Of a stretch of 63,737 nt of DNA, positions 24,649 through 63,731 are shown in pieces. The notes beneath the pieces are model-generated. The model was given only the letters and a program-made list of their open reading frames with translations. It was not told the origin of the DNA and searched no databases. How positions within the stretch are numbered: position 1 is the stretch's first letter; every line of letters begins with the position of its first letter. Source of the stretch: Schmidtea nova (Eukaryota); NCBI GenBank assembly GCA_044892505.1, contig CM097883.1, positions 257,734,001 through 257,797,737 on the forward strand, read 5' to 3'. Both the position numbers and the translations under genes were made by a program.

Positions 24649-24756
24649 TTTTATTAGGGTAAATAAAATTTTATTGGATTATGCACATGTAATTATGTAA
24701 TCACTATTAAGCGTATAATTAAGATCAATTTTTATTTTTTATTGAGATTGTGGAAA

Positions 24757-24793
24757 GCCTGATGATGACAGCTAAGCTGTTGAAATATATTGC
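24757..24793 (+). ncRNA. Minimal hammerhead ribozyme motif in Penelope pseudo-LTR (mirror copy on minus strand ~23575-23611)
   Basis: gc-CTGATGA-t-gacagc(taa)gctgtt-GAAA-tatat-t-gc. Confidence 0.72.
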
Positions 24794-25257
24794 ATTAATA
24801 TATTTAAAAAAATGGTCTTCTCTTATTTATATGAATAAATTGCCATTTTTATTTAAAATAATAATAATAATAATAAAAATTTTTTTAAAACTTTGATAAT
24901 AACTGTAAAAGTCAATGGAAGGTTATGTTGTTGGAATGATGTAATTATATTGTGAGTGGTTTACGATGATTGTTCCTATCACTATTGAAATATATTTGTT
25001 TTTCGTTATGTGTCATTTTATGTTGGTATTGATAGTTATTGTAGAAGGCTGTAGCGCCCAGCAGAGTCTCCGGTAAAAGTCTGTCTCAGGACAGCTGGGG
25101 TGTATGCTATATAAATGTATTATGCGTATGTGCGTATGTGATTGAAAGCTTTAATCAAATAAACTAACAAATGATTATAATAAACAAAAGCAACTTTACA
25201 GAACGATTTTTATTTAATCAACTAATAAAAAATACTACTCACGGTGAATGGAATTAA

Positions 25258-27143
25258 TAACAAATATCTTCTTTATAATTTAATATTCCTTTGCAATTTT
25301 TCTTTTCTCTTGCTTGGACGATATCTTTTTGAATCTTCAATTTCCTTTTTTCGATCGTTGTTTTTGTCTTTTTGGCGACGTTTCTATGCTTCTTTTGGTT
25401 ATCAATTTCTTTTTTAAAATTTGGTAGATAGTTTGTAGCTCCTTAGTATCTTTTATAAATCATTTGTTTTTTAATTTCTTAATCAATTTCTTATTTTTAA
25501 ATTCTTATAGTAAATTTTTTATTACTATAGGAATTGATTATTTATTTGCTATTTTAATTTTTAAATTAAATTTTCAATTTTTATTATTATTTCAGGCAGA
25601 ATTGCCGAACATTACTTAATAATTAAAGGGGGTCATCCTATGTCCACAAGGACGCCTACCATAATAAATGCTAATTGAAGATAATAGAAGCAAAAAAATA
25701 ATAAAAATAACAACTATTTTGATATAACCTTTACAATAACATTTAAAATTATCACTGGTCTATAAATTAAAACGATAATAAAAATTTGGAAGAGAAAAAA
25801 CTAAATTTGATAATAGTTAAATTTATTAAATAATATTTATGTAAATCGCGCACTGTCGATTCTCCAAATTGGAGTTATAACATCTTTTCTATCTACTTTA
25901 TAACCCTGAATTTTTATATTAATGAACCATTGTTCTTGATCATTGTAGTCCACTGATTGAAACGCATCAGGAAAACGAGTTTTTCTGCTGTTGATCTAAA
26001 TTTTTTCTTTGCAACAAATATCTTCTTTATAATTTAATATTCCTTTGCAATTTTTCTTTTCTCTTGCTTGGACGATATCTTTTTGAATCTTCAATTTCCT
26101 TTTTTCGATCATTGTTTTTGTCTTTTTGGCGACGTTTCTATGCTTCTTTTGGTTATCAATTTCTTTTTTAAAATTTGGTAGATAGTTTGTAGCTCCTTAG
26201 TATCTTTTATAAATCATTTGTTTTTTAATTTCTTAATCAATTTCTTATTTTTAAATTCTTATAGTAAATTTTTTATTACTATAGGAATTGATTATTTATT
26301 TGCTATTTTAATTTTTAAATTAAATTTTCAATTTTTATTATTATTTCAGGCAGAATTGCCGAACATTACTTAATAATTAAAGGGGGTCATCCTATGTCCA
26401 CAAGGACGCCTACCATAATAAATGCTAATTGAAGATAATAGAAGCAAAAAAATAATAAAAATAACAACTATTTTGATATAACCTTTACAATAACATTTAA
26501 AATTATCACTGGTCTATAAATTAAAACGATAATAAAAATTTGGAAGAGAAAAAACTAAATTTGATAATAGTTAAATTTATTAAATAATATTTATGTAAAT
26601 CGCGCACTGTCGATTCTCCAAATTGGAGTTATAACATCTTTTCTATCTACTTTATAACCCTGAATTTTTATATTAATGAACCATTGTTCTTGATCATTGT
26701 AGTCCACTGATTGAAACGCATCAGGAAAACGAGTTTTTCTGCTGTTGATCTAAATTTTTTCTTTGCAACAAATATCTTCTTTATAATTTAATATTCCTTT
26801 GCAATTTTTCTTTTCTCTTGCTTGGACGATATCTTTTTGAATCTTCAATTTCCTTTTTTCGATCGTTGTTTTTGTCTTTTTGGCGACGTTTCTATGCTTC
26901 TTTTGGTTATCAATTTCTTTTTTAAAATTTGGTAGATAGTTTGTAGCTCCTTAGTATCTTTTATAAATCATTTGTTTTTTAATTTCTTAATCAATTTCTT
27001 ATTTTTAAATTCTTATAGTAAATTTTTATATTAATGAATTTTTATATTAATGAACCATTGTTCTTGATCATTGTAGTCCACTGATTGAAACGCATCAGGA
27101 AAACGAGTTTTTCTGCTGTTGATCTAAATTTTTTCTTTGCAAC
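25258..27143. repeat. 754-bp tandem array, ~2.5 copies (third internally deleted)
   Basis: caaatatcttctttataatttaatattcc at 25261, 26015 and 26769; third copy jumps to the unit end near 27024. Confidence 0.9.
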
Positions 27144-28747
27144 TTAAATTTTTATTGATTTTCATTAAAATCTTATTTACTGCAACAACATCTTCTTTAG
27201 ATATATTTGCAGCTAAACTGTCATACAATGAGTTGGTTAATTTGACCGGATACAATAATCTAAAAGGTATTTCTTCTACTAAGAAATAAATTTTATAGTC
27301 ATAATATACTTGGACTGGTTTGATTTCTGTCTTGATTTTTCTTTTAATTTCTTCTTTCTTGTTTTTTCACCATTTTTTGGTTTGTTAAAAATTTTATCGT
27401 AAGTAGGAAAATTTGCTTTGTGTGATTGCATTTTAATATTTATGACATTATCTAAAAATGGCTTTGTATTTATAGTCATGAGTTTATGTCTTTGTCCAAT
27501 GAAAATGACGCATTCACACTGTGTCTGTTATGCATGTGTGTATGTCTTTGTTACATGTCTTTGTTGCATGTGTATCTTTGTCAGATGTTATATATAATTG
27601 ATGCATATGTGCGTATTTTTATGTAGTTAAATGTTTTAGTTAATGTATTTCTTTAAAATGTTTATGTATTTAGTTAATGTTTATATTTCTTTATTTATTT
27701 GTCAAATTATTTGCCCAAATAATTTGATAAAGAAAACCTCTATATTAATAAAAAAACATATTAGTATTTAAAATAAAAAATTAAAAAACTGAACTTTAAT
27801 AAAAACTAAAACAAATTAAAATACGAATGATAATACATTTATTAAATGAAAACTAATAAAGGTAAATACAAATGATAACACATAAAAACATAAATAATAT
27901 CAATGAAAATAACATAAAACATATATACAATATATTCAATTATTGTTACGGTGATGATTGATTGCAATCAGTCATCTCACGATTGCATTGTTCGTAATCT
28001 GGAAGATCATCGGGAATATTGCGATGGCATTCATCGCAATCAGGTGATTCTGGCGATTCGTCGCATTGTGAAGATTTATCACATTGAACTAATTTGTCGC
28101 ATTCTGAAGAAACAGGACAATCAGCGGATTCTTCTCAATCCGGAGTACAATTGGGCCATCTGTTAGGTTCTTCTTCTTCCTCTTTTTCTTCTTTTGCGGA
28201 TTCTAACTCGATTTTTTCAGTTCCATCCTCAAAATTCATATACGGAACCTCTGAATTTGGTCAGTACAATGCCCGCATTAATAGGCACATATGATGTGCT
28301 CGGACATTAAAGGGATCTCAACATCCAGGTTTGCGGGGTGCTCTAGCAATATTTGATTGACGTCTATTCCCGTAATACACTGGATCTTATACAGGAATAG
28401 TTTGGGTGCTGTGTAAGTCAGCTGAGTCATCAAATTGGGGAATATTTCTTCCAGTTTGCTGAATAAGACAGCCATCAGCTTTTCTAAAAAATGTAAATTT
28501 TAAGAAATGATAACTTGTAATTTTTAATTTACAATTTTTTAGATTTTTTGATGTGAGACACATCGTAAATATAAATTATCATAAAATTTTCATGGTAAAA
28601 TTTTCACAGTAACAAACAACATGGAGAAAATAATACACACACATAACTAATCATATTCGAGTACACATAATATGTCTTTATTAAATAAATACATACATAG
28701 CCAATCAGAATCGTACATTACTATTGTAGGTTTATTGCAATCATGAG

Positions 28748-29248
28748 TCACACGATAATAAGAAATCTAAAATGTCTATCCTCAATAATTAATTTTATAT
28801 CGATAATAATATTATCAACTATATTACAATAATCCTTAGTTTTTAACTCTAATATAACTACTTTACCGCTAGTAAATATATTAACACACATAGGATTATA
28901 TTTCATAAATCTCAAAGCTGGAAATATTTCTGGCCCGTAAACACAGTCCAATAATTTAGACAAAGTATTTAAATTACAACAAAATCCCAGGTCTACCGTT
29001 ACAGGAATTGATTTTATTTTTAAATCATAAATCTTTACTTTTTCGTCACTTATAAATTCCTTGCATACCATAATTCTAAATCTACCATTTTTAAAATATA
29101 TTATCAAGTTCTTACCACTTCTATCAATAATTTGCTGTGTTTTCACCTTTTGGAAATTCACGTGAGATACATCAGTTTTACCCTTATAATTTATGTTGCT
29201 ATTCATTACTTTATTACTTATTTTTAAATATGAGAACAACAATGACAA
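28748..29248 (-). CDS. Divergent TATA-binding-protein-fold ORF inside the Polinton remnant
   Basis: VTVDLGFCCNLNTLS...YGPEIFPALRF...P.CVNIFTSGKVVI resembles a TBP repeat (YEPE.FPGL...IF.SGKVV); IIYFKNGRFRI as first-repeat trace; first ATG at 29206. Confidence 0.7.
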   Translation of the reverse strand: MSLLFSYLKISNKVMNSNINYKGKTDVSHVNFQKVKTQQIIDRSGKNLIIYFKNGRFRIMVCKEFISDEKVKIYDLKIKSIPVTVDLGFCCNLNTLSKLLDCVYGPEIFPALRFMKYNPMCVNIFTSGKVVILELKTKDYCNIVDNIIIDIKLIIEDRHFRFLIIV

Positions 29249-30290: not shown

Positions 30291-31584
30291 CGTGGTGCGG
30301 TCAAAAAGTTTCCGGCCTACCCCAGAAAAAGTAAATGCAAGAAAGCACAACTATATTTTTATCAACACCAATACCATTACTTCTCGAACCAATTACCTCC
30401 GGCATCTACACACTTCTGCCAACGACCAGGGAGGGCTTCGAATGCCCCATACTAAAATGAGGGTGGAAGCTGGTCAAAAATCCGATTTACAGCCTACTCT
30501 AAATCGCCTGCATCCATGAAATACTCTCCCCGCAGTTGATTCTTCAATTCCGTAAATAGGCAGTAATCTGAGGGAGCCAAATCAGGGCTGTATGGAGGGT
30601 GGCTAATGATTTCGAAGCCACAGTCATTGAATTTTGTTTGGGCAATGCGGCTGGTGTGAACTGGCGCATTGTCATGTTGAAACCAGTGAGGGAGACCATA
30701 TGGTTTTCGGCACTTTCTACGAGCTTGCTCAACGAGATTACCGTAATATTCTCCGCTGATTGTCCGTCCCTTCTCAAGAAAGTCGGTGAGGATCACTCCC
30801 TTATGACTCCAAAACACAGTCAACATGAGTTCCCGTCTGTGCGACATTCCGGAACGAGACTTCCAAACTTTTCCTTCTTCCGGCTTTCTCCATTCCATAG
30901 ACTCCCGCTTTGATTCAGGCTGATGTAGGGGTAACGGTGTCTCATCACAAGTGAGAATGTTTTGGATAAATCTTTCTCCATACTTGCGGTAAATGGCGAG
31001 GTTCATGAGACACGCATTCTTTCGGTTATTGCACATCTCAGTTGTCAAAAAGCGAGGCACAAACCGAGACACCACCTTGTTGAAGTTAAGGTCTTTCAAT
31101 AATTGCACTACGGTGCCGTGTGATATTTGTAGGGATTCTTCCAGCTGCCTGGTAGTTATACGGCGATCTTCCAGTACCATTTTCTCCAATTTTTCCTTCA
31201 CATCTTCATTTCTCAAAGTCTTTGGTCGACCCTCTCGTTCCTCATCTGACACACTTTGCCGACCCCGTTTGAATTCAGCAATCCAAAACTTGATGGTAGA
31301 CTGAGAGAGACACTTTTTGCCATAGGCTCGATTCAGATTTACCATGATTTCCTGGTTGGTTTAGCCGAGAAGAACACAAAAGCGAATAGCACTGCGATAC
31401 TCAATTTTTTCCAGCGAACGCACTTGCAATGACATTTCCATCTGCAACAGATAAAGTAAATGGATTAGGTCAATAATATTTTCAACATGAAATTGTCAAT
31501 AAATTTCCAATAAAATAAACCTATTTCCATTAAAAAATCAATTTGTTAAGTAGGGTATGTCGGAAACCTTTTGACCGCACCACG
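30291..31584 (-). mobile_element. mariner (DD34D) transposon, 1294 bp
   Basis: TIRs cgtggtgcggtcaaaa / ttttgaccgcaccacg; TA TSD at 30289-30290 and 31585-31586. Confidence 0.95.
30340..31345 (-). pseudogene. mariner transposase with premature stop at 30494
   Basis: FVPRFLT, TCDET, HDNAPVH, YSPDLAPSDY; C-terminal tail disrupted. Confidence 0.9.
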
Positions 31585-47599: not shown

Positions 47600-49817
47600 T
47601 GAATTGTCAGATCAAAAGAGGTTTAATATTTACATACTTTTATAATTAAAACAAATGTATTTTACAAAACATTATAATAATTTAAATTAATTTAAATTAA
47701 TTTAATTAATACTATTTATATTTAATTACACAAAGTTTGGTATGAAAGTACCAAATTTTAGCTGAATGTGCAATATTACTTATTGCACAATCTTTCAACA
47801 GTGTCTTAATTCTTTTCTCCTGGACCCCCATATTTAATAATAGATTCATTGTCTTAGGTTCGAATGATCCCAAGGAGCGAATTATACAAGTAAAAAATTC
47901 AACTTTAAAGTCTGGTTTAACTGCTTGTATCTCAGATCTTAGATTTTCGTATTTTTCCAAGTTTAGTTTGTCACTCAACTCAACGTTTGAAACAGAATCA
48001 ACTGGACATTTCATGTCTACTAAAAGTATTGTATTCGTTTCAGTATTTGTTATTAAAAAGTCAACGCGTTCAGTCGAATTCGGTGAAAGGGAACATTTGT
48101 GATCGACGACAACGAGTAAATTTGGATTTTTAAGTTCATTTTTGATTTTATCTATACAAGCATTGTGTTTATTTGTAGCTAAAGATTGATTGATTTTACA
48201 TTTTTGTAAAACGTGAAGTATCGTTTCATCCTCAGATTTACACCTACGACACAGATGATTCTCGCCAGTTTTATGTGGTTTGGCAAATGTTGAGAGAGTT
48301 TTGTTCGTGCATGATGAACGAATTTCCATTCGAATTCTGTCAAATCACTCCGGAAAATAAGCTTATTTACAAGAGGACAGAATTTAATCGCAGAGACGAG
48401 AAGATTACTATGATTACTCATTTCCCATTTTTCGAGATATGAAACTTGTATTGCAGAATGCAATATTTTTGACAACGCCTTTCTTAGAGTTGGTTATAAG
48501 ATGCGTGTGCCAGTTAATGTTGTAGTGATACGAATTGAAAGATTTTCTTTGCCAGTTTCAAATAATAGTTTGATGATGTGAACTCTGGCAAAGTAAGCAA
48601 TAGATGTTCTTAATCGGTAAAAGCGAGTTTTACCACCGCTGTGATTTTGTTTACTCTCTTTTCCATTAACCCATTCTAAAGAGTTGGATTTTTAATTTCA
48701 AGTCTTGGACTCGTAACAAACAAGAGTGAAAAGGTATTTATCGTTTTCGAGTATTTGCAAGGTGATTTTAGCAAACGATAAAAGTATACAATCGTCTATG
48801 CAAGCAGATCTATGCAACCAGCTCCACCAGTTTCCGTTGCATTATAAAAATAACTAATTTCATAATAGTTCGGTAAGTTTAAAATCTTTTTTAAATGGCT
48901 TCTCAGTAGACTAGTATTATTAACATTTATTCTTGAATTATTTTGGGGATTAGCAAAAGAACTGGTTTTTATTTCCCTAGTTCTAATTGGAAAAATAAGC
49001 CAAGAATGCAAAAACATTTTATAAGCCTTAAGTTTTTGCCAGCCATGAAGATCAGAATTAGCAATCTTTTTAGTGTCTTCAATGACTTTTCTGACGATTT
49101 CATAGGGACTTTGATGATTATTCTCACCTGTTGGTACACCCAAATATTGGTAAAATTCATTTGTCGTTATCTTTTTTATGTATTCTTTGTTGACATCAAT
49201 TTCACTTACAATTTCAACCTTTGGATATTGAATATATGCGCATTTTTCAGGACGATATTCAAATCCGATTTCATTAGCAGTACTGATAGCAATGTCTATC
49301 AATGTCTGTAAATTAAATGTATTCGTCGCGATAAGAACTATGTCATCTGCATAAGCCAACACTTGTACAGGAGAAGTCCTTATCATAAATGGATTAACAT
49401 TCGACAAGTTTATAGCTTCAAGAACTGGATTGATGGCTATTGAAGAGTATCATTGAGATTGGACAACCTTGCTTGACACCTTTCTTTTTCAGAATGTCTG
49501 GTGTCTGCGTTTTTTAGGCAATAAAATGAGCTTGTGTCTGTGTAAATTAGTTTTAATATCTTTTCACTAAACGTTCATGTGTCTTAAAAGTGTCCACATG
49601 TAGTCCTGTGGAACACTACCGAACGCGTCTTTTATGTCGAGCCAAGCTATAGTCACAGGTAAGGATTTACTATATTTCGATTGTTCGACAATCGCAGAAA
49701 GAATTGAATTATGTTCAATACATCCCTCGAATTCCGAACCACCCTTTTGGCCAACGTGTAATAGTGAGTTATTTCTGATCCACATATTAAGACGATAGTA
49801 GACAGAAGTGTGCACCA
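47600..49817 (-). mobile_element. 5'-truncated non-LTR retrotransposon with restriction-like endonuclease (R2/NeSL-type), defective
   Basis: WLDIKDAFGSVP, KGVKQGCPIS, YADDIVL, CCHC (CRRCKSEDETILHVLQKC), REL (RVDFLI...LVDMK...KY); frameshifts. Confidence 0.88.
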
Positions 49818-50437: not shown

Positions 50438-51030
50438 TATTAACAAAAACTAATCAAATTTTTTTATATATATTGTTGCGAACGTGNNNNNNNNNNNNNN
50501 NNNNNNNNNNNNNNNNNNNNNNNNNNNNNNNNNNNNNNNNNNNNNNNNNNNNNNNNNNNNNNNNNNNNNNNNNNNNNNNNNNNNNNNNNNNNNNNNNNNN
50601 NNNNNNNNNNNNNNNNNNNNNNNNNNNNNNNNNNNNNNNNNNNNNNNNNNNNNNNNNNNNNNNNNNNNNNNNNNNNNNNNNNNNNNNNNNNNNNNNNNNN
50701 NNNNNNNNNNNNNNNNNNNNNNNNNNNNNNNNNNNNNNNNNNNNNNNNNNNNNNNNNNNNNNNNNNNNNNNNNNNNNNNNNNNNNNNNNNNNNNNNNNNN
50801 NNNNNNNNNNNNNNNNNNNNNNNNNNNNNNNNNNNNNNNNNNNNNNNNNNNNNNNNNNNNNNNNNNNNNNNNNNNNNNNNNNNNNNNNNNNNNNNNNNNN
50901 NNNNNNNNNNNNNNNNNNNNNNNNNNNNNNNNNNNNNNNNNNNNNNNNNNNNNNNNNNNNNNNNNNNNNNNNNNNNNNNNNNNNNNNNNNNNNNNNNNNN
51001 NNNNNNNNNNNNNNNNNNNNNNNNNNNNNN

Positions 51031-51803
51031 AAAGCTTTATTAAGAATTTTATTGTCAAATGATTCGAGCAAAATGATTCGAGCAAAATGATTCGATATTA
51101 GAGACAATATAGCGATTTGACCAACATTGTGTGTCGACAGAACTGAAGGCTCATCGTAATGAAATAATAAAGTTTCGAAAATAGAAAGGTCACAATTAAA
51201 GTTATCTAATTTCACAAATTTGGCACAACCATCAGGTTCGGCACCTGGTTTTGCAGACGAGAATCCTTTATATCCTAACTGAAGCATTGCTGGTTCGATG
51301 TCAGATAAGTAATATGAAATTTCAACTTCTTGGAGACAGAAAATGTCACAATTTAAATTCTCCAGATCCTTCTTAATATTTATCCATCGAATTGGCCAGT
51401 CAAGAAATCTCTGATCGCAATTTTCATAAAGAACATAACCATTAACCAAATGACATTGAGCCAAAATATTGAGACTGGAACTCATCATTTGAAAACCAAA
51501 TTTCCCGAACCATAGCATAGAAAACTTCCTTTTAAAACAAATTCTTCCATTCAAAATTTCATATCCAAACTTAAAAGACCGAAATTTCCCGAACAGTTAA
51601 ACTAAATTGCAATATTTAAACAATTCCAAAAATTCTACCTGAAATTCAATTCTCAAATTAATTACAACTCGAACGCGCACACAGACGCGAATAAACACAA
51701 CACCACAGACGGTGAGGGAAAAACGCGCACACAGACGCGATAAGTTATTAACAAACGCACAAAAAACAGCCAAAGTTTGCTCAGGCAAACCTTGGCTGAA
51801 ACA
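51031..51803 (-). repeat. BEL element 3' LTR (contains Angel-like fragment; distal end in gap)
   Basis: Starts TGTTTCAG directly after the polypurine tract; matches 62991-63726. Confidence 0.85.
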
Positions 51804-51817
51804 TTTCCTCCCACCTT
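51804..51817 (-). other. Polypurine tract of BEL element
   Basis: aaggtgggaggaaa immediately before TGT. Confidence 0.75.
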
Positions 51818-51867
51818 GATCTCTTCTAGCGGATCAACCGACCTATTCATCTCTGGGGGGCCAACCT

Positions 51868-53562
51868 TCAATTCCTAACTTTATTTTTCCACTTCGGCTT
51901 ATACTTATATCTGTCACTGAACTTTTCTTCAGCCAATAATCCTCTCATGGTATCCTGGATACACCCCCTCCAACATATGGACATTTTTATTTCCAAATTT
52001 ACTGTTGCCAATTTATCGTTAATATCATTTACATATCTCGTTCCCACTGCTAACATTTCTTCAGTTTCCGCACAATTATTTATTTTTTCTTCTAATCTTT
52101 TAATTTCACTTTTATATTCCAATTCGCCCGTTTTTATTTTACTTTCAAGATTTTCTATCCTTGAATGAAGTTGTGTTACTAAATCCGACTTATCAACAAG
52201 AACTTCATTATCAACAGTTGAACCATGATCAACTTTGTCAAATGATCCAATTTTATCGTCACTAGCTACATCTTTACCTTCTATCGGAAGATAAGCTGAC
52301 TGCTCACTACCTGTTTTCTCTGCCATTATAACTGGACAATTTATTCGTTCAATCGTTTCTACTTTTTCACATTTAAATCTGACATTTTTTATAACTTTTC
52401 CATTATCTTCTAGATTTGTTTCACTTTTATTAACTTTTCCCTCGTCACTTTTATCCACATTGGAATTTTCCACTATTCCTTGCCTAATATTTTCACCATT
52501 AAGGGAATTCTCTCCAATGATTTCCTCAAAATTACAATTTTCTTCAATATCGCTAATATTTTCCACAATTTTCTCATCGACAATGCAGTTTTCTTCAAAA
52601 TTATTCTCATTTACTGCCTGCTCATTTTTTACTGACATTGTAGATTCAATTTTCGTCATTACTTCTTGCACTAAATCGTTTGAAGAAGTATTTATTCCAT
52701 CCTCGTTTGCAATATCAACCGACTCAGAGTTATCAACCATTTTACTAGACACACCACTATTCACTGCGCTATTCTTACCTCGACCTGAAATCAAAACGCC
52801 ATCACTAGTCCGAACCTCCCCAAGAACTACTTCCTGAGCTTTAGGTGCAAAACTCTCGATACATTCCTCTTCACACTGTTCTCTTTGACAAGTCTCCATT
52901 AACAAACTTTTATTCTCGGCTGTCTTTTTACTGTCATCCATTTTACCAAATATGTTATCATTTATTGTGTTATCTTCATTTTGACAAAACCTCATGTTTT
53001 CTGTATGTGTTTCTTCAACTTCCTGGTATCGTTGGAGCTGTTGTTGTGACACTTCATTCGTTGTAAAATATGATTGAATGAAGTGAGTCTGTCCACAGCT
53101 CGGAATGCCTGATCGTTCTTTCCCGATGCAAGTCCATCCCAATGGAGTTAACCTAGCTATCGGTTCTCCTTCACGTCCCCATATCTCTTTAATTGCTTTT
53201 TGTAGACCTGCATAGTCAGCCCCAAGAAGCGCATCTACCGATAATCTACTTCCAGCCGTTGCAAATCTGATTCGTCTCAAATGGTCCCAGTTCTGACTTG
53301 CTTTTTTCCAATCGGTCACTCGCAAATCACTTGTTACCTTCTCTACCGACCAAGCATGAAATTCTTTGACCATCATACCATTTACACTCATTAAGTTCAT
53401 TGTGACTCTCTGCGCCTCCAAATTTTCCCTTTTGCCTCCTATTACTCTAACTGGAACATTAACTTTTGATCCTGATAATTGTAATTCTCTAGACACATAC
53501 ATACTAACATAACTAACCGTACTTGCATCATCTAGTAATGCGTTAACATTATTCTTTTTCCC
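51868..53562 (-). CDS. BEL aspartic protease followed by long acidic low-complexity region in place of RT-RH-IN
   Basis: NVNALLDDASTVSY, ALLGADY, PIARLTPLGWTCIG, then ~400 aa E/N/K-rich sequence; frame is -1 relative to gag. Confidence 0.75.
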   Translation of the reverse strand, partial: GKKNNVNALLDDASTVSYVSMYVSRELQLSGSKVNVPVRVIGGKRENLEAQRVTMNLMSVNGMMVKEFHAWSVEKVTSDLRVTDWKKASQNWDHLRRIRFATAGSRLSVDALLGADYAGLQKAIKEIWGREGEPIARLTPLGWTCIGKERSGIPSCGQTHFIQSYFTTNEVSQQQLQRYQEVEETHTENMRFCQNEDNTINDNIFGKMDDSKKTAENKSLLMETCQREQCEEECIESFAPKAQEVVLGEVRTSDGVLISGRGKNSAVNSGVSSKMVDNSESVDIANEDGINTSSNDLVQEVMTKIESTMSVKNEQAVNENNFEENCIVDEKIVENISDIEENCNFEEIIGENSLNGENIRQGIVENSNVDKSDEGKVNKSETNLEDNGKVIKNVRFKCEKVETIERINCPVIMAEKTGSEQSAYLPIEGKDVASDDKIGSFDKVDHGSTVDNEVLVDKSDLVTQLHSRIENLESKIKTGELEYKSEIKRLEEKINNCAETEEMLAVGTRYVNDINDKLATVNLEIKMSICWRGCIQDTMRGLLAEEKFSDRYKYKPKWKNKVRN

Positions 53563-53760
53563 TTCGATTCTAAAATGATAGGTATCGTCCTGAGGCTTAT
53601 GTAACCCATATCATTTGACTTTCTATTTGTAACCATTCTAGTAACATGTGTTTGGGGTTTTTGATTGCTGTCCTCTTCTGATTCCTTTTCTCTTCGACTA
53701 TGCAACAAACTATGATGTTTTCCCTTACAGTCTTTTTCCTTACAAAATCCTGGTCTGGTG
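53532..53760 (-). pseudogene. BEL Gag C-terminal remainder (third zinc knuckle)
   Basis: TRPGFCKEKDCKGKHHSLLH continues [14 protein letters not shown] across the Gypsy insertion. Confidence 0.85.
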
Positions 53761-54483
53761 TGTGGTGATTCATGCATAGGCATCTGACCACACAGGTTGT
53801 ATGTGTCCAATTGACATTTTGTGGTCGCCTATATTTTGTAATTTTTGTAAAAACTTTCAATTAATTTTTATGTTTGTTGATATTAATATTAATATTAATA
53901 TTGGTGTTGATATTAATATTGATTGTTATTGGTGTTAAGATTAATTTTAATTGTTGTATGAATATGAATATTAATATTAATATTAATTGTTATGAATATT
54001 AATTTTTTGTAGAAAAAGAAAAACTTTGGCGTATTTATAAATAAACATTTACAGTGTTAAAATTGTTTTAATTTCAAATTAAATATTATTTCCAAGTTGC
54101 AAATATTACCTGATTTCAAAAGAATATCACATTTAGAATAATGAATATAGAAAGTAGCAATGAAAAATATTATCCCATAGCTGTTCTAATTGAAGAACTT
54201 AGAAATGATGATGTTCAGTTGCGATTAAATAGCATAAAACGCCTAACAACTATATCATTAGCACTGGGTGCTGAGCGAACTCGATCTGAATTAATTCCGT
54301 TTCTAACAGAAACTATATACGATGAAGATGAAGTCTTGCTAGCTCTTGCAGAACAATTAGCCAATTTCATATCTTATGTTGGTGGACCAGAATACGTTTA
54401 TACCTTGTTACCACCTCTAGAAAATTTAGCAATCGTAGAAGAATCAATTCAAAAGCAGCGGATCCCGGACGTCGTAACCCACA
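53761..54483 (+). repeat. Gypsy 5' LTR
   Basis: Matches 59632-60354 except G54381/A60252; overlapping TATAAA (54036) and AATAAA (54040). Confidence 0.95.
54141..54443 (+). other. Captured intronless fragment of PP2A 65-kDa scaffold subunit A (first HEAT repeats); second copy at 60012-60314
   Basis: [25 protein letters not shown]...[29 protein letters not shown]...GGPEY...[13 protein letters not shown] closely matches PPP2R1A residues ~1-101. Confidence 0.95.
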
Positions 54484-56096
54484 AAATGGTGTCAGAAGTG
54501 GCAGAAGGTATTCTTGTTTCTACGTCTCTAAATGCGCGAGACGAAGTCGTGCGACAGTCCGGACCACTGGAGACTCATACTCCTACCACTGCGGACGTCT
54601 GGGCCAGATTTGTTGATGTCCAGCATGTTTCTCTCGTGGCAAACTACGATCTCCTCACTATCCGAGAACTTTACTTTCAAGGTAACCACATTATGTTAAA
54701 TATTGTTCACCTTTTCAATTTGTGTGGTCTAGGCTTTTTGTGTGTTGTCGCCACATTAACACCCTTACCTGTTCCCTTATCCGGGGGGTCTAACCTCAAT
54801 ATACATAAAGTACCTTGCACTGACATAATGGCAAATGATCAGGGCCATGCCGCCCTACGTGCTTCTGAGGGTTTTGTTTTTGTCTCAACATCAGACAAGA
54901 ACCGGATACTTCCCTTTAGTTTAAGCCTATCCTTTAAAGGACTTCTCAGTTACCTAAAATATGAGAAAAATGTTTACATAAATGACACGTATGCTACATA
55001 CAGGGGTTTTGTACATAGATTCGACGATCGACCCTTATATGAGCATATAAATGCTGGCGACACTATATATTTGCGGTACCGTATGCGCGGGGGCGCAGAC
55101 AGCGACAATTCGTCTGTTTCAGACCAACCGCCTTCGCCTGGGACTACACAGCCAGACATCCCAACATCAATGCACAATTTGCCCAAGATTCCGTTCTTTT
55201 TGGATCAGAACGGATCTCCAGCATCCTGGTTTTTTGTACTGGAAAGACATTTTAGGATCAGGACAATCATATCATCCTCCGAAATGTTCGACCACTTGAT
55301 CACCTGTTTGCAAACGGAACTACTTTCGAAATTGGCTCATAATTTCTTGACCATTTCTACTTCTGCTGACCCGTACACAGCTCTTAAGAATCTAGTCCTC
55401 GAGAATTATCGCGAACCTAAGGCCGATATTTTCTCGCATTACTTCAAGGCACAGTCTCTCGGGTTACAACGTCCATCCGAATTCCTCAAAAGAGCCATTG
55501 ATAACCTCGAATCCTTACAACAAGGTATCACTACCGACGACTCTCTGCTTCGTAGATTTTTTTTGTCGGCTTTGCCACCTCAGACACAGGCAATATTGGC
55601 AGTTACGGAGTCAACCAACCTCCGGGATCTCGCCAATATGGCAGATAAAATCGCCGAAGCATCGGGCGTTAGCACTTCGCAACAGTGCAACCAAGTCAAT
55701 TCGTTTGAGACTTTAGCCGCTGATACAGCCAGTTCAGCAAAGCGAAACATCCAGAGTTCAGATATCGTTTTGGCTGCAATTGAGCAGATATCTGATCGAT
55801 TGAAGAAAATTGAGGCTCGGGATGAAAGACGGTCATCTCCGCACAGACGCACCTTTTCTCGTGAACGTTCTTTTCCCCGTTCTAAGAAGATTTGCTACTA
55901 TCACGAAAGATTCGATAGAAAAGCTCAAAAATGCCACATAGGTTGCGAATATGCAGACAGGAGTTCAAGCTGTGAGCTTTTAGATGTCTGCGTCTATCAT
56001 GGGAGATACAGGCAAGCAGCCAAATACTGTTTAGAAGGCTGCAGGTATTTCAAAAGTAATCCAGCACCGCAGAACAAGTCACATCCAAAAAACTAG
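54141..56096 (+). CDS. Chimeric ORF1: PP2A scaffold A N-terminal fragment, linker, ubiquitin-like domain (RMRGG), CsRn1-type Gag with two CHCC motifs
   Basis: 651-aa uninterrupted ORF from an LTR-internal ATG; Gag with [18 protein letters not shown] and [18 protein letters not shown]. Confidence 0.88.
54487..54501 (+). other. Primer-binding site complementary to tRNA-Leu 3' end
   Basis: TGGTGTCAGAAGTGG is the complement of CCACTTCTGACACCA, 3 nt after the LTR end. Confidence 0.85.
54870..55094 (+). other. Divergent ubiquitin-like domain immediately before Gag
   Basis: 75 aa, FVFVST...YRG...[24 protein letters not shown] follows the ubiquitin pattern IFVKT...FAG...[25 protein letters not shown]. 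Confidence 0.68.
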
Positions 56097-56135
56097 TCTC
56101 GCCATCTCTGTACGCGGCATGCACAGATGGCAATC
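56087..56135 (+). promoter_or_regulatory. Programmed -1 ribosomal frameshift signal (gag to pol)
   Basis: A AAA AAC (56087-56093) just before the gag stop, 7-nt spacer, hairpin gccatct...agatggc; -1 frame open into FLVDTGS. Confidence 0.85.
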
Positions 56136-59100
56136 TCTTTTCTTCTTCCCTTTCTTTTTCATTTTTTGTTTCCGCCCAAATTATTTCACCTCTCTGTACA
56201 GACATAGCACGCAACACCATACAATTTCTAGTAGACACCGGATCTAGCATCTCTCTTTTGCCCAAGTCATTGTACAGACCATGCCAACCGGGCAAATTAC
56301 ATTTGAGAACTGCCAATGGCAACCAGATGTACACTTCTGGTACATGCAACATCACACTCCGTCTGCTTGATCAAATAGTCAATTGGACTTTTCACATTGC
56401 GGAAGTCACACACCCGATATTAGGTATTGACTTCTTACAAGCGTACAGCATTACGTTAAATTGTGAGCAACACAGTTTATCATTCTCCAAGCCGATTTCA
56501 GCTTCTTCCAATGAACTTAAAACGAGTCCCAAACCTTCTTCCTGCAACGCAAAAGCCTTTGCGGTCGACAGCATTCATAATGATTTTGTTAAGAATCTCA
56601 GTTCACACAACATTTTTTCGGACATTGTGGGACCAATCAAAAGAGAAGTCAGCTCGAACTTCTGTCACGAAATTACAACTTCCGACTCGCACCCTCTCAG
56701 AGAGAGAGTTCGTCCAATCTCGGAAGACAAATATAACTTTCTCAAGACTGAGTATGAATCTCTTTTGGCTAGTGGCATTATCCAACGATCCTCCTCACCT
56801 TGGGCCTCACCCATTCACTTCGTGACCAAAAAGGATGGATCTTATCGGATATGTGGCGATTACCGCCGCCTTAACAACATAACGCAGCACGACTCTTATC
56901 CGATGCCACTCATTAATGAATCTCTGACGCGTTTCTCTAACTGCAAGATTTTCTCTACATTTGACCTAGTCAAAGCTTATCATCAAATCCCTGTTGCTCC
57001 ACGGGATGTACCAAAAACAGCCGTCATCACTCCAATCGGTCTGTTCGAGTTCTTGCGAATGCCTTTCGGCTTGCGTAATGCAGCACAAACCTTCCAAAGG
57101 CACATCGATCACATCTTGTCAGATTTAAATTTTGTCGTCGCGTACGTGGACGACATATTAATCGGTTCCCCCGATGTTGAGACTCACAAGGCACATCTAC
57201 GTAAGCTCGTAGCTACATTAAACAAAAATCAATTAAGAGTTAATTTGTCTAAATGTAAATTTTTTCAACATCAAGTTGATTTTCTTGGACACACACTATC
57301 TGCAGACGGAATAGCTCCACAATCAGCTCGTTTAGAATCCATCAGGAACTTCTCTAAGCCTGAAACTGTAACGCAGCTTCGCAGTTTTTTAGGTGTTGTC
57401 AATTATTGTCATCGATTCATACCAAATGTTTCGAATGTTCTCGCTCCATTGACATCACTCAGCTCAGGACCGAAACGTTCCATCGTAAAATGGACAGATA
57501 AATCCAATGCTGCGTTTGGAGAAGCAAAAAGAGCACTCGAGTCAATTCAGACTTTAGCTTACCCAAGGCATTCCCTTCCGTACAGCCTAACGACAGATGC
57601 ATCCGATGTTGCAGTCGGAGCTGTCCTAACTCAGTCACAAGACGGAATAGTTCGACCTCTCGAATTCTTTTCGAAAAAGCTAACCGAAACACAGACTAGA
57701 TATTCAGCTTTTGATCGCGAGCTCTTAGCCATCTTTCTTTCGGTTAAGCACTTCAAACATCTGCTGGAAGGAAAATCCACCACGGTTTATACTGATCACA
57801 AGCCGTTGGTTCACATAACTACAATGAAAGATCCTTCTCCAAGGCAATTACATCAAATCTCCTTTATCACAGAGTTCACCAGTGATATCAGACATATAGC
57901 TGGAAAGGATAACATCATAGCTGATTTTCTGTCTCGCAGTACAAACGCAATTTCGTTAGGACCTTTATTCACTACTTCCACTCTACGAGATAACAAACCA
58001 ACAGAAGCCGATCTTCGGTATTTTCTACACAATAAATCAAATATCGACGGAATCGATTTTGACTCCTCACTCTCAGGTGTACTTAGACCAATTCTTGGAA
58101 CTGAGCTTCGTCGACCCGCATTTCATGCAGTTCATAACTTACACCATCCTGGAACAACAGCCACTTATCAGCTGCTAAGAAACCAGGTCGTTTGGCCTTC
58201 TATGAGGCGAGATGTGAAACTGTGGGTTAGCGAATGTCTAAAATGTCAATGCAATAAAGTAACCCGACACATCAAACCACCGATCACGCACTTTCCAACC
58301 GGTAACCGGTTCGATGTCGTTCACATCGATCTTGTTGGTCCTTTGCCGATAGACAACGGTTTTTCATATCTTCTAACCATGATTGATAGGAAGACAAGAT
58401 GGTTTGAAGTCGTTCCTCTACGATCCATATCAGCAAATATTGTTGCAGAAACTTTTATATCAGAATGGGTCGCACGTTATGGCATTCCAAGACACATAAT
58501 TAGCGATCGAGGAGCCCAATTCGAATCGCAACTCTTCACTTCTTTAACAGAACAGCTTGGCATTAAACGGCTGCGTTCTACAGCTTATCATCCACAGACG
58601 AACGGTCTCATTGAAAGGTTTCACCGGACACTCAAGCACTCGCTCCGAATACTCTCTTTAAATCATCGTTGGACGAAAGCCTTGCCTTTCGTTTTATTGG
58701 GTTGGAGGAACACACCTTCTAAGACGACTGAGTCATCCCCAGCTCAATTACTCTTCGGTACCAACACTACGGTACCTAACGAACTAATTGACTTAGGAAA
58801 TGAAACAACACTCGAAGAACTTGGCACCGCCAGACGCCATTTCCTGGATATTGATAGCAATCCTATATTTTCGTCTGCCAACGCACACAAACCTTTTATA
58901 CCAAAATCTCTATCTTCAGCCAAGTTCGTTTGGATCCGCACAATCTCGGACTCAGCGTTGAAGCCTAGGTATACTGGACCTTATCGCCTACTAGGCATAA
59001 TCGGAAATTACGCCACTGTCAAGATGAACGATTCATCTGAGACAATCGCTCTGGCACGAATCAAACCAGCTTTTGGATTATCGGAATTCTTAGACTATAA

Positions 59101-59506
59101 CGCCAAAGAATTCATTCCAACCCCTACAGATAATTCCTTCCAATCTGATGACACCTCTCCAAGTACCAGTCTTCCACGATCTCAGCCGGACTTGGATAGT
59201 AAAATTCATTCGCCAACAACTCCTACTGAGGACACTACGTTATACCATTCCGATTTCTCTCCTACAAACCTGGACCAAGCACCTTCGCACTCTGATGGTA
59301 CTCACATTACCGTTAGACCCGAAACAAGCTCTTCACCTGCTTGTAGCGAGTTGCCAACTCCAGTTCCAATTTTGAAGAAATTGACACAAGTTCAACTTCC
59401 ATCAGGATCTACTAGGAAGCGCCGTGTTTCCATCAACCCGTGGGTGCGCGAACGTCGTATTGGGGACAATCCCAATGCTCCCACCAGACTCCACCGCATT
59501 TTTTGA
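56093..59506 (+). CDS. Gypsy Pol (protease-RT-RNase H-integrase), intact
   Basis: FLVDTGS, YVDD, FDRELLA, HHCC finger, HIDLVG / SDRG / ERFH, YTGPY; no stops. Confidence 0.95.
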
Positions 59507-59620
59507 AACGCATCCTCTCAACATTCCATCATTTTCTTTCTTCCTTCTTTTTCTTTTTCTTCTTTTTTCTTTGCCGCCAACACATTCTTTTCACCACACA
59601 CTACTGCTCCGCAGCTTTCG

Positions 59621-59631
59621 TAGGGGGCTAA
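59621..59631 (+). other. Short polypurine tract of Gypsy element
   Basis: tagggggctaa directly before the 3' LTR TG. Confidence 0.65.
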
Positions 59632-60354
59632 TGTGGTGATTCATGCATAGGCATCTGACCACACAGGTTGTATGTGTCCAATTGACATTTTGTGGTCGCC
59701 TATATTTTGTAATTTTTGTAAAAACTTTCAATTAATTTTTATGTTTGTTGATATTAATATTAATATTAATATTGGTGTTGATATTAATATTGATTGTTAT
59801 TGGTGTTAAGATTAATTTTAATTGTTGTATGAATATGAATATTAATATTAATATTAATTGTTATGAATATTAATTTTTTGTAGAAAAAGAAAAACTTTGG
59901 CGTATTTATAAATAAACATTTACAGTGTTAAAATTGTTTTAATTTCAAATTAAATATTATTTCCAAGTTGCAAATATTACCTGATTTCAAAAGAATATCA
60001 CATTTAGAATAATGAATATAGAAAGTAGCAATGAAAAATATTATCCCATAGCTGTTCTAATTGAAGAACTTAGAAATGATGATGTTCAGTTGCGATTAAA
60101 TAGCATAAAACGCCTAACAACTATATCATTAGCACTGGGTGCTGAGCGAACTCGATCTGAATTAATTCCGTTTCTAACAGAAACTATATACGATGAAGAT
60201 GAAGTCTTGCTAGCTCTTGCAGAACAATTAGCCAATTTCATATCTTATGTTAGTGGACCAGAATACGTTTATACCTTGTTACCACCTCTAGAAAATTTAG
60301 CAATCGTAGAAGAATCAATTCAAAAGCAGCGGATCCCGGACGTCGTAACCCACA
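59632..60354 (+). repeat. Gypsy 3' LTR (contains PP2A-A fragment)
   Basis: 723 bp, offset 5871 from the 5' LTR. Confidence 0.95.
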
Positions 60355-63300
60355 TGGTGCATTCTCTCACTCCATGTCCTTTCCTTAAGCAGTTATAACA
60401 TAATCTCCACTCTTGAACTAACTTTTTTCTGTCATTTACTGGCAATTGTTTGAATTGTGAGCATTGATCTAGATAATGTGCACCCGGACATTGGAAACAC
60501 ATCGACCTGCTTTGACCTTGTTGCATGATTATTCCTTCCCCACCTTTACTCGAGTTTTGTTTTACTTCATTGCCCGAGTTCGTAAAGTGTGAGTACCGTC
60601 TATTGTCATTCTTTTCGGAAGCCTTGAAGTTCTTCTGCCCATACTGCCAATTAGAGTCTTTTTCACGCCAAAATCCATATAATATCTCATTTGTCGATCG
60701 CGTAAGATCAGCTTCGTTTTGCAACCTCTCTTTTAACCGGGTTATTGATTCTTCCCCTTCATCTTTCGCTTGCTCTCTTTTCCATCGAATAAGTAGCGAA
60801 GCTGGCAATTTCTTTAACAATTGTTGCAAGAGACAGCCTCTCTGTAAGTCCTCTTCCCTTCCGATTGCTTTAAACCGTACCTCCATTGACTCCAACAATC
60901 CAACGAGAATATCCAAGTCTTTCATCTCTACTTCGCGAACCGGTCGAAATTTCTCTACGGTCTCTAACATAGTCAGATAACTACGTTCTTCACCTCCGTA
61001 ACGCCTTTCTAATTTCTCTTTCGCCATCTTGTAGCCATCGGCGGTATAACCCAGTGGCTCTATCATTCTCAGCGGCTCATCTAGCAAGTACTGCCTAAGA
61101 TGCAGCATTTTATCTTCGGCTGTTCCATCTGCCGTATCTATTACCGTATTGAAGGCCGCTTTCCACGTCTCAAACTCGACAACCTTCCCATCGAAAATCG
61201 GAATCTTTATTTTCTGCAACCGATTTAAACTCTTCTTTTCTCTTGGCGCTTCATATTCCGATGTCTTTGACCCCTCGCTCACAACACTTTGTTCTGTTCT
61301 TTTTTGCATTATCTTATCTATCTCTTCTTTTTTTGTTTCCAGCTCACAGATATCTTTTTCCACTAATTCTAACTCCTCCTTCTTGTTTAATTTGTCACAC
61401 AGCTCGACAAGTCTTAACCAATCTTCCAATGTATCCTCAAACTCTTTTTCATATAATACAAGTGTGTCCTTTATTTCCCCGACCATTTCTGCCAACAATA
61501 AGTTACGCGCTCGAGTTACTTTCCATTTTTTAGATCGCCGACGGGTCCATAAACTTTTGAACTCTTCCTCATCATTACCACCTCTTAAACGAAGAACAAG
61601 ATGAAGAGTAGATTCCTTTTGTATGTTGTAATCTGCCAAGATTCTTCCGCCTTCCAATTGTTTACCCGCAAATATCAATCTCTGTTGATCAGGTGGGATT
61701 CCCTCTTTATCTTGTATTCTCGTTTTTACCTTTTCTATTGTGTCACTTGATTCAACTTCCAGGGTAATGGTTTTCCCTGTTAACGTTCTTACAAATATTT
61801 GCAATCCCCCTTCCATTCTCAAAACTAGACCGCGAGTTGATTCCTTGGTGGGAATAGTCGTATTTCGATTAATTAACTTACTGAAAACGCCGCCCAGAGT
61901 TTCAACACCCAACGAAAGCGGTGTAACATCTAGCAATAATACCTCAATCACATACTCAGCAAGAACTCCTCCCTGTATTGCTGCACCCATTGCAACAGCT
62001 TCATCTGAATTCACACTCTTGCTAGGGGCTCTACCAAAATGTTTCTGCACAGTTTCTTGAACTTTAGGCATTCTTGTCATCCCACCAACTAACAACACTT
62101 CTTTAATATCCGATGTTTTTACCTTTGCATCTTTAATAGCCTTTTCACAAGATTCAATTGTTCTCTTAATTAGGTGCTCCACTAATTGTTCTAACTTTGA
62201 CCGTGTGAACCTTAAACTCAAATGTTTAGGTCCCGTATTATCCATTGTCAAATATGGAAGATTAATGTCCGTTTGAATAACCGATGACAATTCAATTTTA
62301 GCTTTTTCAGCTGCTTCTCTAACTCTCTGTAAAGCCATAGGGTCTTTATCAACATCAACGCCTTGATCACATTTAAATTCATAAAGAATATTTTGTAAGT
62401 GCACATTATCAAAATCTTCCCCACCCAAAAACGTATCCCCACTTGTAGATTTTACTTCAAAACTATTATTCAGATTTTTTATATAACTATCTAGCTTTAG
62501 CTTAATGATTTCCCAGTTGAAACACCCATAATTGATTTTAAATCCATAATTTTTAACCTCTCGCCCTATCTCTCTAATCATCGCTGTATTATAAATTATT
62601 TCTTTTGGAACACACTCCTTATTCACACAAGTCCCACCCATTTTATTTTTTCCAATTAAAGGAACAGATTTCCTATATTCATCTGCTCTCCTGGCTCGTT
62701 CATCCCCCAATTGAAAAGAATGCTGGGGCCCATAGCAGCATCTTTTCCGGTCCCTTAATGGACTCAACTCACCGCAAAACTTGTCAAAGGGCAGAGGGGA
62801 AAATGTTTCAACACAGGATAAAAATTTACAATTCATAAAATAATGTTCAAAGATATTACAAAAATACAGATTAAGAAAAGGTACCTTGTTCTGGCTGGAT
62901 AGCCAGAACAGTATTGCCCATGTTCCGAGAAGTACGTGGTCCCCCGATGGGAACCACGCTCTGCTACCAAAAATGATTCCATCAAAACGCAAAGCTTTAT
63001 TAAGAATTTTATTGTCAAATGATTCGAGCAAAATGATTCGAGCAAAATGATTCGATATTAGAGACAATATAGCGATTTGACCAACATTGTGTGTCGACAG
63101 AACTGAAGGCTCATCGTAATGAAATAATAAAGTTTCGAAAATAGAAAGGTCACAATTAAAGTTATCTAATTTCACAAATTTGGCACAACCATCAGGTTCG
63201 GCACCTGGTTTTGCAGACGAGAATCCTTTATATCCTAACTGAAGCATCGCTGGTTCGATGTCAGATAAGTAATATGAAATTTCAACTTCTTGGAGACAGA

Positions 63301-63556
63301 AAATGTCACAATTTAAATTCTCCAGATCCTTCTTAATATTTATCCATCGAATTGGCCAGTCAAGAAATCTCTGATCGCAATTTTCATAAAGAACATAACC
63401 ATTAACCAAATGACATTGAGCCAAAATATTGAGACTGGAACTCATCATTTGAAAACCAAATTTCCCGAACCATAGCATAGAAAACTTCCTTTTAAAACAA
63501 ATTCTTCCCTTCAAAATTTCATATCCAAACTTAAAAGACCGAAATTTCCCGAACAA
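60320..63556 (-). CDS. Chimeric polyprotein: Angel-like, glutathione reductase, mitochondrial-type HSP70 and ubiquitin fragments fused to BEL/Pao Gag; truncated by the Gypsy insertion
   Basis: 1078-codon uninterrupted frame; first in-frame ATG at 63478; domain motifs listed in the sub-features. Confidence 0.9.
60360..61576 (-). other. BEL/Pao Gag
   Basis: [21 protein letters not shown]...KMLHLRQYL...KEKLERRYG; [13 protein letters not shown] and [14 protein letters not shown]. Confidence 0.9.
61577..61804 (-). other. Captured ubiquitin unit, 76 aa, intact LRLRGG
   Basis: [18 protein letters not shown]...[14 protein letters not shown]; nine differences from canonical animal ubiquitin by eye. 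Confidence 0.97.
61844..62461 (-). other. Captured intronless fragment of mitochondrial/DnaK-type HSP70
   Basis: [80 protein letters not shown]. Confidence 0.95.
62462..62710 (-). other. Captured fragment of glutathione reductase (redox-active disulfide region)
   Basis: ARRADEY...[21 protein letters not shown]...YGF...FNWEIIK.K.DSYI..LN aligns with GSR GGTCVNVGCVPKKVMWNTA...FNWRVIKEKRDAYV. Confidence 0.88.
62952..62969 (-). other. Primer-binding site resembling initiator tRNA-Met 3' end
   Basis: TGGTAGCAGAGCGTGGTT is the complement of AACCACGCTCTGCTACCA, 4 nt after LTR-terminal CA (62974). Confidence 0.8.
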
Positions 63557-63731
63557 TTAAACTAAATTGCAATATTTAAACAATTCCAAAAATTCTACCT
63601 GAAATTCAATTCTCAAATCAATTACAACTCGAACGCGCACACAGACGCGAATAAACACAACACCACAGACGGTGAGGGAAAAACGCGCATACAGACGCGA
63701 TAAGTTATTAACAAACGCACAAAAAATGACA
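62974..63731 (-). repeat. BEL element 5' LTR (start tentative, near window edge)
   Basis: Direct repeat of 51031-51776; ends ...GGAATCA before the PBS; possible start TGTCA at 63731. Confidence 0.82.
63059..63454 (-). other. Captured fragment of an Angel/CCR4-nocturnin family (EEP) gene; second copy at ~51099-51494
   Basis: LNILAQ...LYENC....LDW..RW..I...L....CDIFCLQEV...LGY...PDGCA...NVGQIAIL most resembles the ANGEL N-terminal half of the EEP domain. Confidence 0.85.

Follow-up and report, generated by a model that had tools for sequence, protein, structure and literature searches.

The first open reading frame (ORF1) of a Ty3/Gypsy retrotransposon in Schmidtea nova begins inside a long terminal repeat (LTR), on a captured piece of a host gene, and runs without a stop through the LTR end, a tRNA-Leu-type primer site and a leader into a predicted ubiquitin-like domain with a Gly-Gly tail, and then into Gag. 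The element lies intact in a 63,737-nt stretch of contig CM097883.1 (the window, from whose first letter all positions are counted). The Gly-Gly tail extends across a whole lineage of related Gags, and a BEL/Pao element in the same window, unrelated to Gypsy, repeats the layout with a real ubiquitin. We consider it probable that translation starts at the first AUG of the LTR and that host deubiquitinases cut off the disposable leader, thereby freeing Gag. The ubiquitin-like domain, which was absent from the preliminary description of this DNA, explains why the open frame is tolerated. Papers are cited below by PubMed Central number, on those parts of their text that were accessible.

Reading frame through the LTR end and the primer site

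As the preliminary description had reported, the frame from ATG 54141 crosses both the LTR end at 54483 and the primer site; 343 nt of it lie inside the 5' LTR, a 3-nt spacer separates the LTR end from the primer site at 54487, the primer-site peptide is MVSEVA, and a further ATG at 54486 is in frame as codon 116. The 240 codons between ATG 54141 and the ubiquitin-like domain are free of stops, whereas the other two frames contain 21 and 17, and the same codons were open in none of 2000 Markov shuffles. The frame is likewise kept across the LTR-primer junction in relatives, a check that the description had named. A Leu primer site was found upstream of Gag in nine of 21 related DNA loci (numbered with L; related proteins are numbered with P), and in eight of these nine the frame runs without a stop from an ATG 94-324 nt ahead of the primer site into the ubiquitin-like domain and Gag; in one of the eight (L003) Gag has a stop further on. 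All nine loci keep the LTR part of the frame open, the ATG lies inside the LTR wherever the start of the LTR is visible, and shuffles of the open loci were open in 0-8 of 2000 each. The other 12 loci comprise six that are open to the contig edge, three fragments inside Gag, and L001, L002 and L018. Because the frame is kept open across the LTR end and the primer site in relatives, ribosomes would cross the primer site; and because most related loci carry no recognisable cargo, the open frame is older than the capture of the host piece seen in the window. In the closest pair of loci (L008/L010), the ratio of non-synonymous to synonymous change (pN/pS, which is saturated for distant pairs) was 0.91 for the LTR part, 0.50 for the ubiquitin-like domain and 0.11 for Gag.

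Coding constraint on the primer site itself, which the description had expected, is not seen. The site is free of stops in all three frames, phases 0, 1 and 2 all occur in related DNA, and the primer-site peptide, present upstream in 13 of 37 related proteins with a Gly-Gly tail against 0.53 expected, is read in three frames (xVSE in 7, GVRS in 3 and WCQK in 3). These observations bear on the possibility that an open frame is maintained for the sake of a switch of the kind suggested in the description, in which passing ribosomes would control the annealing of tRNA at the primer site and decide whether the RNA is translated or packaged. Such a role has a precedent in Ty1, where the 5' untranslated region (UTR) and 327 nt of GAG serve initiation, packaging and priming and where partitioning is discussed (PMC5454406). 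However, the phase at the primer site is free, and the idea leaves the Gly-Gly tail and the cargo unexplained; we regard it as very unlikely.

The description had also offered ATG 54486 as an alternative, cargo-free start, and this proposal was not supported by comparison with relatives. Gag could in principle be translated from this ATG or from a Met nearer the ubiquitin-like domain, with the LTR frame incidental: ATG 54486 is in frame and has an A at -3, and a Met stands at the place of the primer site in L015, P0009, P0017, P0155 and P0029. However, the in-frame ATG occurs in one of the nine related loci, being out of frame in three and absent from five, and a relative in sequencing run X7 has TTG in its place. 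Eight ATGs lie upstream of 54486 in the window, so that scanning ribosomes would first meet ATG 54141 and seven out-of-frame ATGs, and the LTR part is open in all nine loci. As primer sites of this kind all begin with TGG, any A before one creates an ATG, and ATG 54486 is thus not above chance. An internal start therefore appears highly improbable. The statement in the description that gag normally starts downstream of the primer site stands as a general rule, with Ty1, whose primer site lies inside GAG, as a known exception (PMC5454406).

Two further candidates were tried and set aside. TATA-like and AATAAA motifs upstream of the LTR ATGs (at -105 and -101 in the window) provide no evidence, the DNA being too AT-rich. 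For a leader acting as a membrane anchor, hydrophobicity was not above that given by base composition in all eight related loci compared, and the value for the window was reached in 90 of 2000 shuffles, unadjusted.

The related loci also gave several observations on their own organization. L002:135-4043 (P0031), open over 1303 codons, and P0027 are frames of some 1300 codons that carry about 900 residues before the ubiquitin-like domain, with a match to cohesin SA-like HEAT repeats; no Leu primer site was found in L002, and the sub-lineage of L002 and P0027 may use another tRNA. In six loci (L003, L009, L010, L012, L014 and L019) the order is circularly permuted, the pol end being followed by one LTR and then gag, and their contigs are probably collapsed repeats or circular intermediates; the L003 contig has identical ends of 99 bp. 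The contig ends L001:1-172 and L013:4591-4762 share 172 nt, 99% identical and inverted relative to each other, and the ubiquitin-like domain of L001 is cut at this shared end, which suggests an element inserted in another.

A predicted ubiquitin fold and a lineage-wide Gly-Gly tail

The domain ahead of Gag has Y-R-M-R-G-G as its last residues (313-318), from which 40 residues lead to the Gag domain DUF7041, and the Gly-Gly tail stands at the same place in the two closest relatives; in one of these, P0003, the domain matches Pfam ubiquitin with E 5.5e-4, below the cut-off. A 28-sequence profile, which leaves out three relatives above the Pfam ubiquitin cut-off, aligned with ubiquitin in hhalign at 94.8% (E 5e-8), and all 39 sequences together gave 97.1%. 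The AlphaFold model is a beta-grasp (strand-strand-helix-strand-strand-strand) with block pLDDT values of 74-91 over the first 70 residues, and every Foldseek match listed was a ubiquitin, ISG15, NEDD8, SUMO or UBL chain, the best with a TM-score of 0.75-0.79 on the target. Profiles, model and structural matches together predict a ubiquitin fold. The tail reads R-hydrophobic-x-G-G followed by a residue other than Pro, and cleavage is predicted after 55094.

Among 1.84 billion representatives searched there were 1118 matches, of which 150 were listed; ten relatives that were looked up are ENA or JGI entries. Two CHCC motifs were present in 38 of the 152 Gag-like proteins examined. The pattern [LIMV]xGG occurs 5-70 residues before the capsid region in 27 of the 28 two-CHCC proteins with at least 95 residues upstream, and in six of 22 other proteins with at least 60 residues upstream, all six falling within the same lineage. 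A tree built from 100 capsid regions places all 37 tail-bearing Gags inside a 43-row group with an SH-aLRT of 83 (94 for 47 rows), apart from 53 Gags that are short or of the ordinary single-CHCC kind. Of the 37, 30 have R or K at -5 (the hydrophobic residue at -4 being part of the search pattern), and none has Pro at +1 (0.015 from the linker Pro frequency, the sequences being related). Pfam ubiquitin was matched at E <=0.01 by 10 of 59 scanned relatives, three of them above the curated cut-off.

Most members of the lineage are 14-32% identical to ubiquitin. Two members at 67-68% nest among members at 18-25%, which suggests that fresh ubiquitin was re-captured within the lineage. A near-canonical ubiquitin precedes Gag in L003, L009, L013 and L019, and also in P0023 and P0037; these share a sub-lineage with degenerate domains, possibly through repeated re-capture. 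A scan of IMG/VR returned 61 pattern matches, none of them related, and the ESM Atlas returned matches at 0.85 only, in DUF7041 clusters, which we treat as a lead only.

Instead of being cut off, the ubiquitin-like domain might be retained in Gag as a matrix-like or docking part that engages ubiquitin receptors or the proteasome, or it might be conjugated after cutting as a decoy modifier. The fold is under moderate purifying selection (pN/pS 0.37-0.67 in closer pairs), which persists while most members drift to low ubiquitin identity, and the R or K kept at -5 is a position also read by activating enzymes. However, a retained domain has no need for an invariant Gly-Gly and a non-Pro residue after it, and a retained leader would put up to about 950 variable residues on the capsid protein. 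We therefore consider retention or conjugation unlikely.

A host PP2A-A piece captured in the LTR

Residues 6-107 of ORF1 match the scaffold subunit A of protein phosphatase 2A (PP2A-A; PDB search, E 4e-52). A contig of run X5, from another organism (depth 971), aligns to 54086-54449 with 40 differences and carries on beyond as PP2A-A, from which it follows that the capture takes in 55 nt before the ATG and stops close to codon 103. Since the capture holds host sequence 5' of the ATG, ATG 54141 is the start codon of the host gene itself; 149 nt separate it from the next ATG upstream within the LTR, and 34 nt of LTR end follow the PP2A-A piece. The position at the 5' end of the host gene, together with what is reported for LTR-mediated retrocopies (PMC5131818), suggests that the piece came from an mRNA via template switching. 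Compared by eye and with an offset, about 11 of the 15 bases of the LTR end at 54450-54464 agree with the host continuation in X5, a possible microsimilarity at the switch point.

The sequencing runs used (X1, X5, X6 and X7) are assembled contigs. Relatives in X6 and X7 have no cover over the PP2A part, and the X7 relative has a different LTR end, with its primer site joined to 54615, which shortens the sequence by 108 nt and preserves the frame. Depth in X1 was about 1900 over the PP2A part and about 2500 over the internal region; it is not a copy number and was left unused.

Other members of the lineage carry other host pieces. Ahead of the primer peptide we found H2A (P0008, P0156), the start of DIS3L (P0047, P0159), Hsp90 (P0019) and, weakly (E 1e-3), the start of Arp8 (P0012); after it we found pieces of 5'-nucleotidase, PheRS-beta-like and CNOT1. 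Several captured pieces derive from RNA-decay genes (DIS3L; CNOT1; the Angel/CCR4 family, window 63065-63463), perhaps by chance or through an anti-silencing bias.

The captured piece could have been selected for an effect of its own, either with the first HEAT repeats of PP2A-A as a decoy for phosphatase partners or with the captured RNA acting against silencing via small RNAs that it has in common with an essential host gene, and such an effect would be compatible with cleavage. The piece is still 72-80% identical to animal PP2A-A, or 66-80% over a wide range of animals, and is copied in both LTRs, the genes captured by relatives act in RNA decay and chromatin (DIS3L, CNOT1, Angel-like, H2A, cohesin SA-like), and anti-silencing through gene capture has been proposed for TART-nxf2 (PMC13534243). 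However, the cargo differs in every sub-lineage, most loci have none that is recognisable, the relatives in X6 and X7 have no cover there, and the conservation may reflect recent capture alone. Selection on the piece itself thus seems to us improbable.

The Gypsy element and its BEL/Pao neighbour

The element is assigned to Ty3/Gypsy on LTRs with TG...CA ends, a target duplication, a primer site, a polypurine tract and a protease-reverse transcriptase-RNase H-integrase (PR-RT-RH-IN) order (Table 1). Its two LTRs differ by a single mismatch over 723 bp, and loose contig ends at 53760 in X1 and X7 mark the empty site. The protease match in pol is weak (Pfam E 0.0011), and no env was found by Pfam in the ORFs of the element. 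The A AAA AAC heptamer probably directs a frameshift into pol, which lies in the -1 frame.

Table 1. Coordinates of the Gypsy element and of the adjoining BEL/Pao parts in the window
Feature	Position	Strand	Basis or remark
Left target-site duplication TGGTG (5 bp)	53756..53760	+	Sequence
5' LTR, 723 bp, TG...CA ends	53761..54483	+	99.86% identical to 59632-60354
Captured 5' end of host PP2A-A gene: 55 nt before ATG and codons 1-103	54086..54449	+	
ORF1, 651 aa: PP2A-A piece, primer site, leader, predicted ubiquitin-like domain, Gag	54141..56096	+	
In-frame ATG (codon 116) overlapping the primer site	54486..54488	+	Not conserved
Primer-binding site, tRNA-Leu type	54487..54501	+	Sequence; 12-mer as in PMC8905726
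Predicted ubiquitin-fold domain (aa 245-318), end Y-R-M-R-G-G	54873..55094	+	hhalign, AlphaFold model, Foldseek
Gag capsid-region domain DUF7041 (aa 359-427)	55215..55421	+	Pfam E 4.6e-10
Two Gag CHCC zinc motifs, Cx2Hx9Cx3C	55893..56042	+	Sequence
A AAA AAC heptamer ahead of the gag stop	56087..56093	+	Sequence
pol: protease, RT, RNase H, integrase	56096..59506	+	Pfam; best PDB match Ty3 Gag-Pol
Polypurine tract	59620..59631	+	Sequence; same tract precedes LTR in related loci
3' LTR, 723 bp, with second PP2A-A piece copy (ORF from 60012)	59632..60354	+	
Right target-site duplication TGGTG	60355..60359	+	Sequence
BEL/Pao ORF: Angel-like piece, primer-site-like stretch, glutathione reductase, Hsp70, ubiquitin-GG, Gag	60320..63478	-	Starts in LTR
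Near-canonical ubiquitin unit, end RLRGG, directly before BEL Gag	61577..61804	-	Pfam ubiquitin E 8e-28
BEL/Pao LTR, 736 bp, with Angel-like piece and ORF start	62991..63726	-	Repeat comparison

The Gypsy element is inserted within the BEL/Pao element and interrupts its ORF. The latter is assigned to BEL/Pao on a DUF1759 Gag domain with zinc knuckles and on its flanking LTRs, and its relatives carry DUF1759 and Pao peptidase entries. Its ORF starts on an Angel-like piece in the LTR (E 7e-18), crosses a primer-site-like TGG stretch at 62969, which we take to be of the initiator tRNA type, and leads through a remnant Gly-Gly tail and then a full ubiquitin, probably of polyubiquitin origin, into the DUF1759 Gag. 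This design is known from one copy, and no ubiquitin was found in three database relatives of the ORF (21-27% identical). The element extends over window 60320-63726 (-) and 50454-53760, with a second LTR copy at 51031-51766 adjoining an N gap; its ORF at 51868-53502 has no Pfam match, and the copy looks incomplete.

The window holds several other features. A GIY-YIG ORF (23971-24648, Pfam E 0.0018) lies between long perfect inverted repeats, and the region 23560-24808 is presumably a Penelope-like fragment. Pfam identified a Tc1/mariner-type transposase ORF at 30494-31345 (-), and fragments of a non-LTR retrotransposon (reverse transcriptase and a zinc-finger/nuclease-like part) lie at 47712-49386 (-). 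There are also a 754-bp tandem repeat (25259-27152), a 17-bp minisatellite (22025-22279) and a partial TBP-like ORF (28748-29206, Pfam E 1.8e-10).

Discussion

In LTR retrotransposons the LTR end, the primer site and the packaging region are normally untranslated, and Gag is processed by the element's own protease. For the Gypsy element described here we propose that the RNA would begin in the LTR a little upstream of 54141 and that the ribosome would take the first AUG and read through these regions. Host deubiquitinating enzymes would then cut at the Gly-Gly and release Gag with a fixed N-terminus, everything upstream being a disposable leader. As such a leader need only be free of stops, in-frame pieces of host mRNA would be tolerated in it. 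These pieces would be picked up by template switching during reverse transcription, and a piece acquired while the LTR end is being copied would extend as far as the 5' terminus of that host mRNA and so come with a start codon of its own, as in the window.

Several points weigh against this proposal. We infer the cleavage, the start site and the transcript end, and host enzymes depend on parts of the ubiquitin surface beyond the tail. The domain in the window is degenerate, about 21% identical to ubiquitin; the segment alone has no Pfam match and no PDB sequence match, hhalign with three sequences (the window and two relatives) reached only 65.7%, and the alignment behind the structure model contained true ubiquitins, so that the model is partly circular. 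The 21 loci come from few datasets and include several near-copies (for example L004/L006). In L019 the frame from the LTR ATG crosses the primer site and then changes frame, and L001 and L018 have stops just upstream of or inside the ubiquitin-like domain. None of the contigs listed (32, with 705 further ones) bridges the LTR-primer junction, and minority contigs have single-base indels in the leader at 54716 and 54782. The leader is not wholly neutral, as pN/pS after the primer site was 0.40 in L008/L010, on small counts, and four of five substitutions in codons 117-240 were synonymous among the rows listed (40 of 310). Six of the 43 lineage rows were called without a leader, P0029 starting at the primer-site Met, and the capsid-region tree is a quick search without bootstrap.

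If the proposal is true, a ubiquitin tag that is cut by the host before Gag lifts the limit set by the untranslated LTR end, primer site and packaging region, and it explains how autonomous elements can carry arbitrary in-frame pieces of host genes. Gag production would depend on host deubiquitinases, which would provide a testable control point, and the elements would give gene capture and the shuffling of exons a natural path, at high copy number. That two unrelated superfamilies show the same design next to each other suggests a pressure imposed by the host on translation initiation or silencing. More tentatively, it is possible that two LTR superfamilies in one animal group, the Gypsy lineage and the BEL/Pao element, adopted ubiquitin-fusion expression independently, with the LTR and leader serving as an in-frame cargo bay that gathers 5' ends and other parts of host genes and is re-armed with new ubiquitin once the tag has decayed, and that the chimeras of cargo and ubiquitin with a free Gly-Gly act on the host.

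Comparison with known systems

We found no description of ubiquitin before a retrotransposon Gag in the accessible literature; subscription papers, Repbase entries and supplements may hold one. The available text of PMC5408684 makes no mention of ubiquitin, and neither PMC5408684 nor PMC5035971, as far as accessible, has a bearing on the mechanism.

Among Gypsy elements, the CsRn1 clade (CsRn1, PwRn1 and AgCR) shares the Cx2Hx9Cx3C Gag motif, the gag/pol -1 overlap, which is one of the layouts in that clade, and the PR-RT-RH-IN order (PMC2582038). The present element differs in having two CHCC motifs, a Leu-type rather than a tRNA-Trp primer site and a 5-bp target duplication instead of the 4 bp of PwRn1; a ubiquitin-like leader and a start codon in the LTR go unmentioned in the available text of the same paper. 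As its CHCC motif is CsRn1-like but its primer site is not of the tRNA-Trp type, we file it as a related lineage and not as a member. Steamer and the C-clade Gypsy elements have a Leu primer 12-mer directly after the LTR, and PMC8905726 prints the same 12-mer as a tRNA-Leu primer site; the window has a 3-nt spacer before it. These elements have a single gag-pol ORF and a short LTR starting with TGTAACA, whereas ours has two frames and a 723-bp LTR starting with TGTGGTG.

The Ty1 gag AUG is also located in the LTR. A gag frame through the primer site is not new, being known from Ty1, in which the 5' UTR is 53 nt long and the primer site lies at nt 95-104, within the gag frame (PMC5454406). However, Ty1 is of the Copia type, and its N-terminus is a fixed part of Gag, with neither a ubiquitin-like domain nor host cargo. 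Planarian Burro elements likewise have a Gypsy polyprotein with host-like domains, including a Ubi2/SUMO-like motif, but in these 25-30 kb elements Gag is N-terminal, the ubiquitin-like motif is internal and env is present (PMC6431247).

TART and other telomeric elements, which are active retroelements, have also taken up fragments of host genes more than once; these are non-LTR elements whose effect is proposed to act through small RNAs, and no in-frame fusion is reported in the available text (PMC13534243). LTR-mediated retrocopies take up partial host mRNAs, sometimes from several genes, by template switching and often in frame (PMC5131818). There, however, internal ORFs are partly replaced and the copies are non-autonomous, whereas here gag and pol are intact and the cargo, fused to Gag, occupies the LTR and the leader. 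The closest parallel for the proposed processing is found in cytopathic pestiviruses (BVDV Osloss, CP Rit), where captured ubiquitin, often preceded by further host or viral sequence, acts as a signal for processing (PMC8310069, PMC13517609); cellular ubiquitin C-terminal hydrolases cleave it and thereby create the N-terminus of NS3 (PMC8310069), and its capture has been repeated and independent (PMC13517609). In contrast to these sporadic variants of RNA viruses, the Gypsy lineage carries its ubiquitin-like domain as a fixed and old feature before the capsid protein, where cleavage by host enzymes is predicted.

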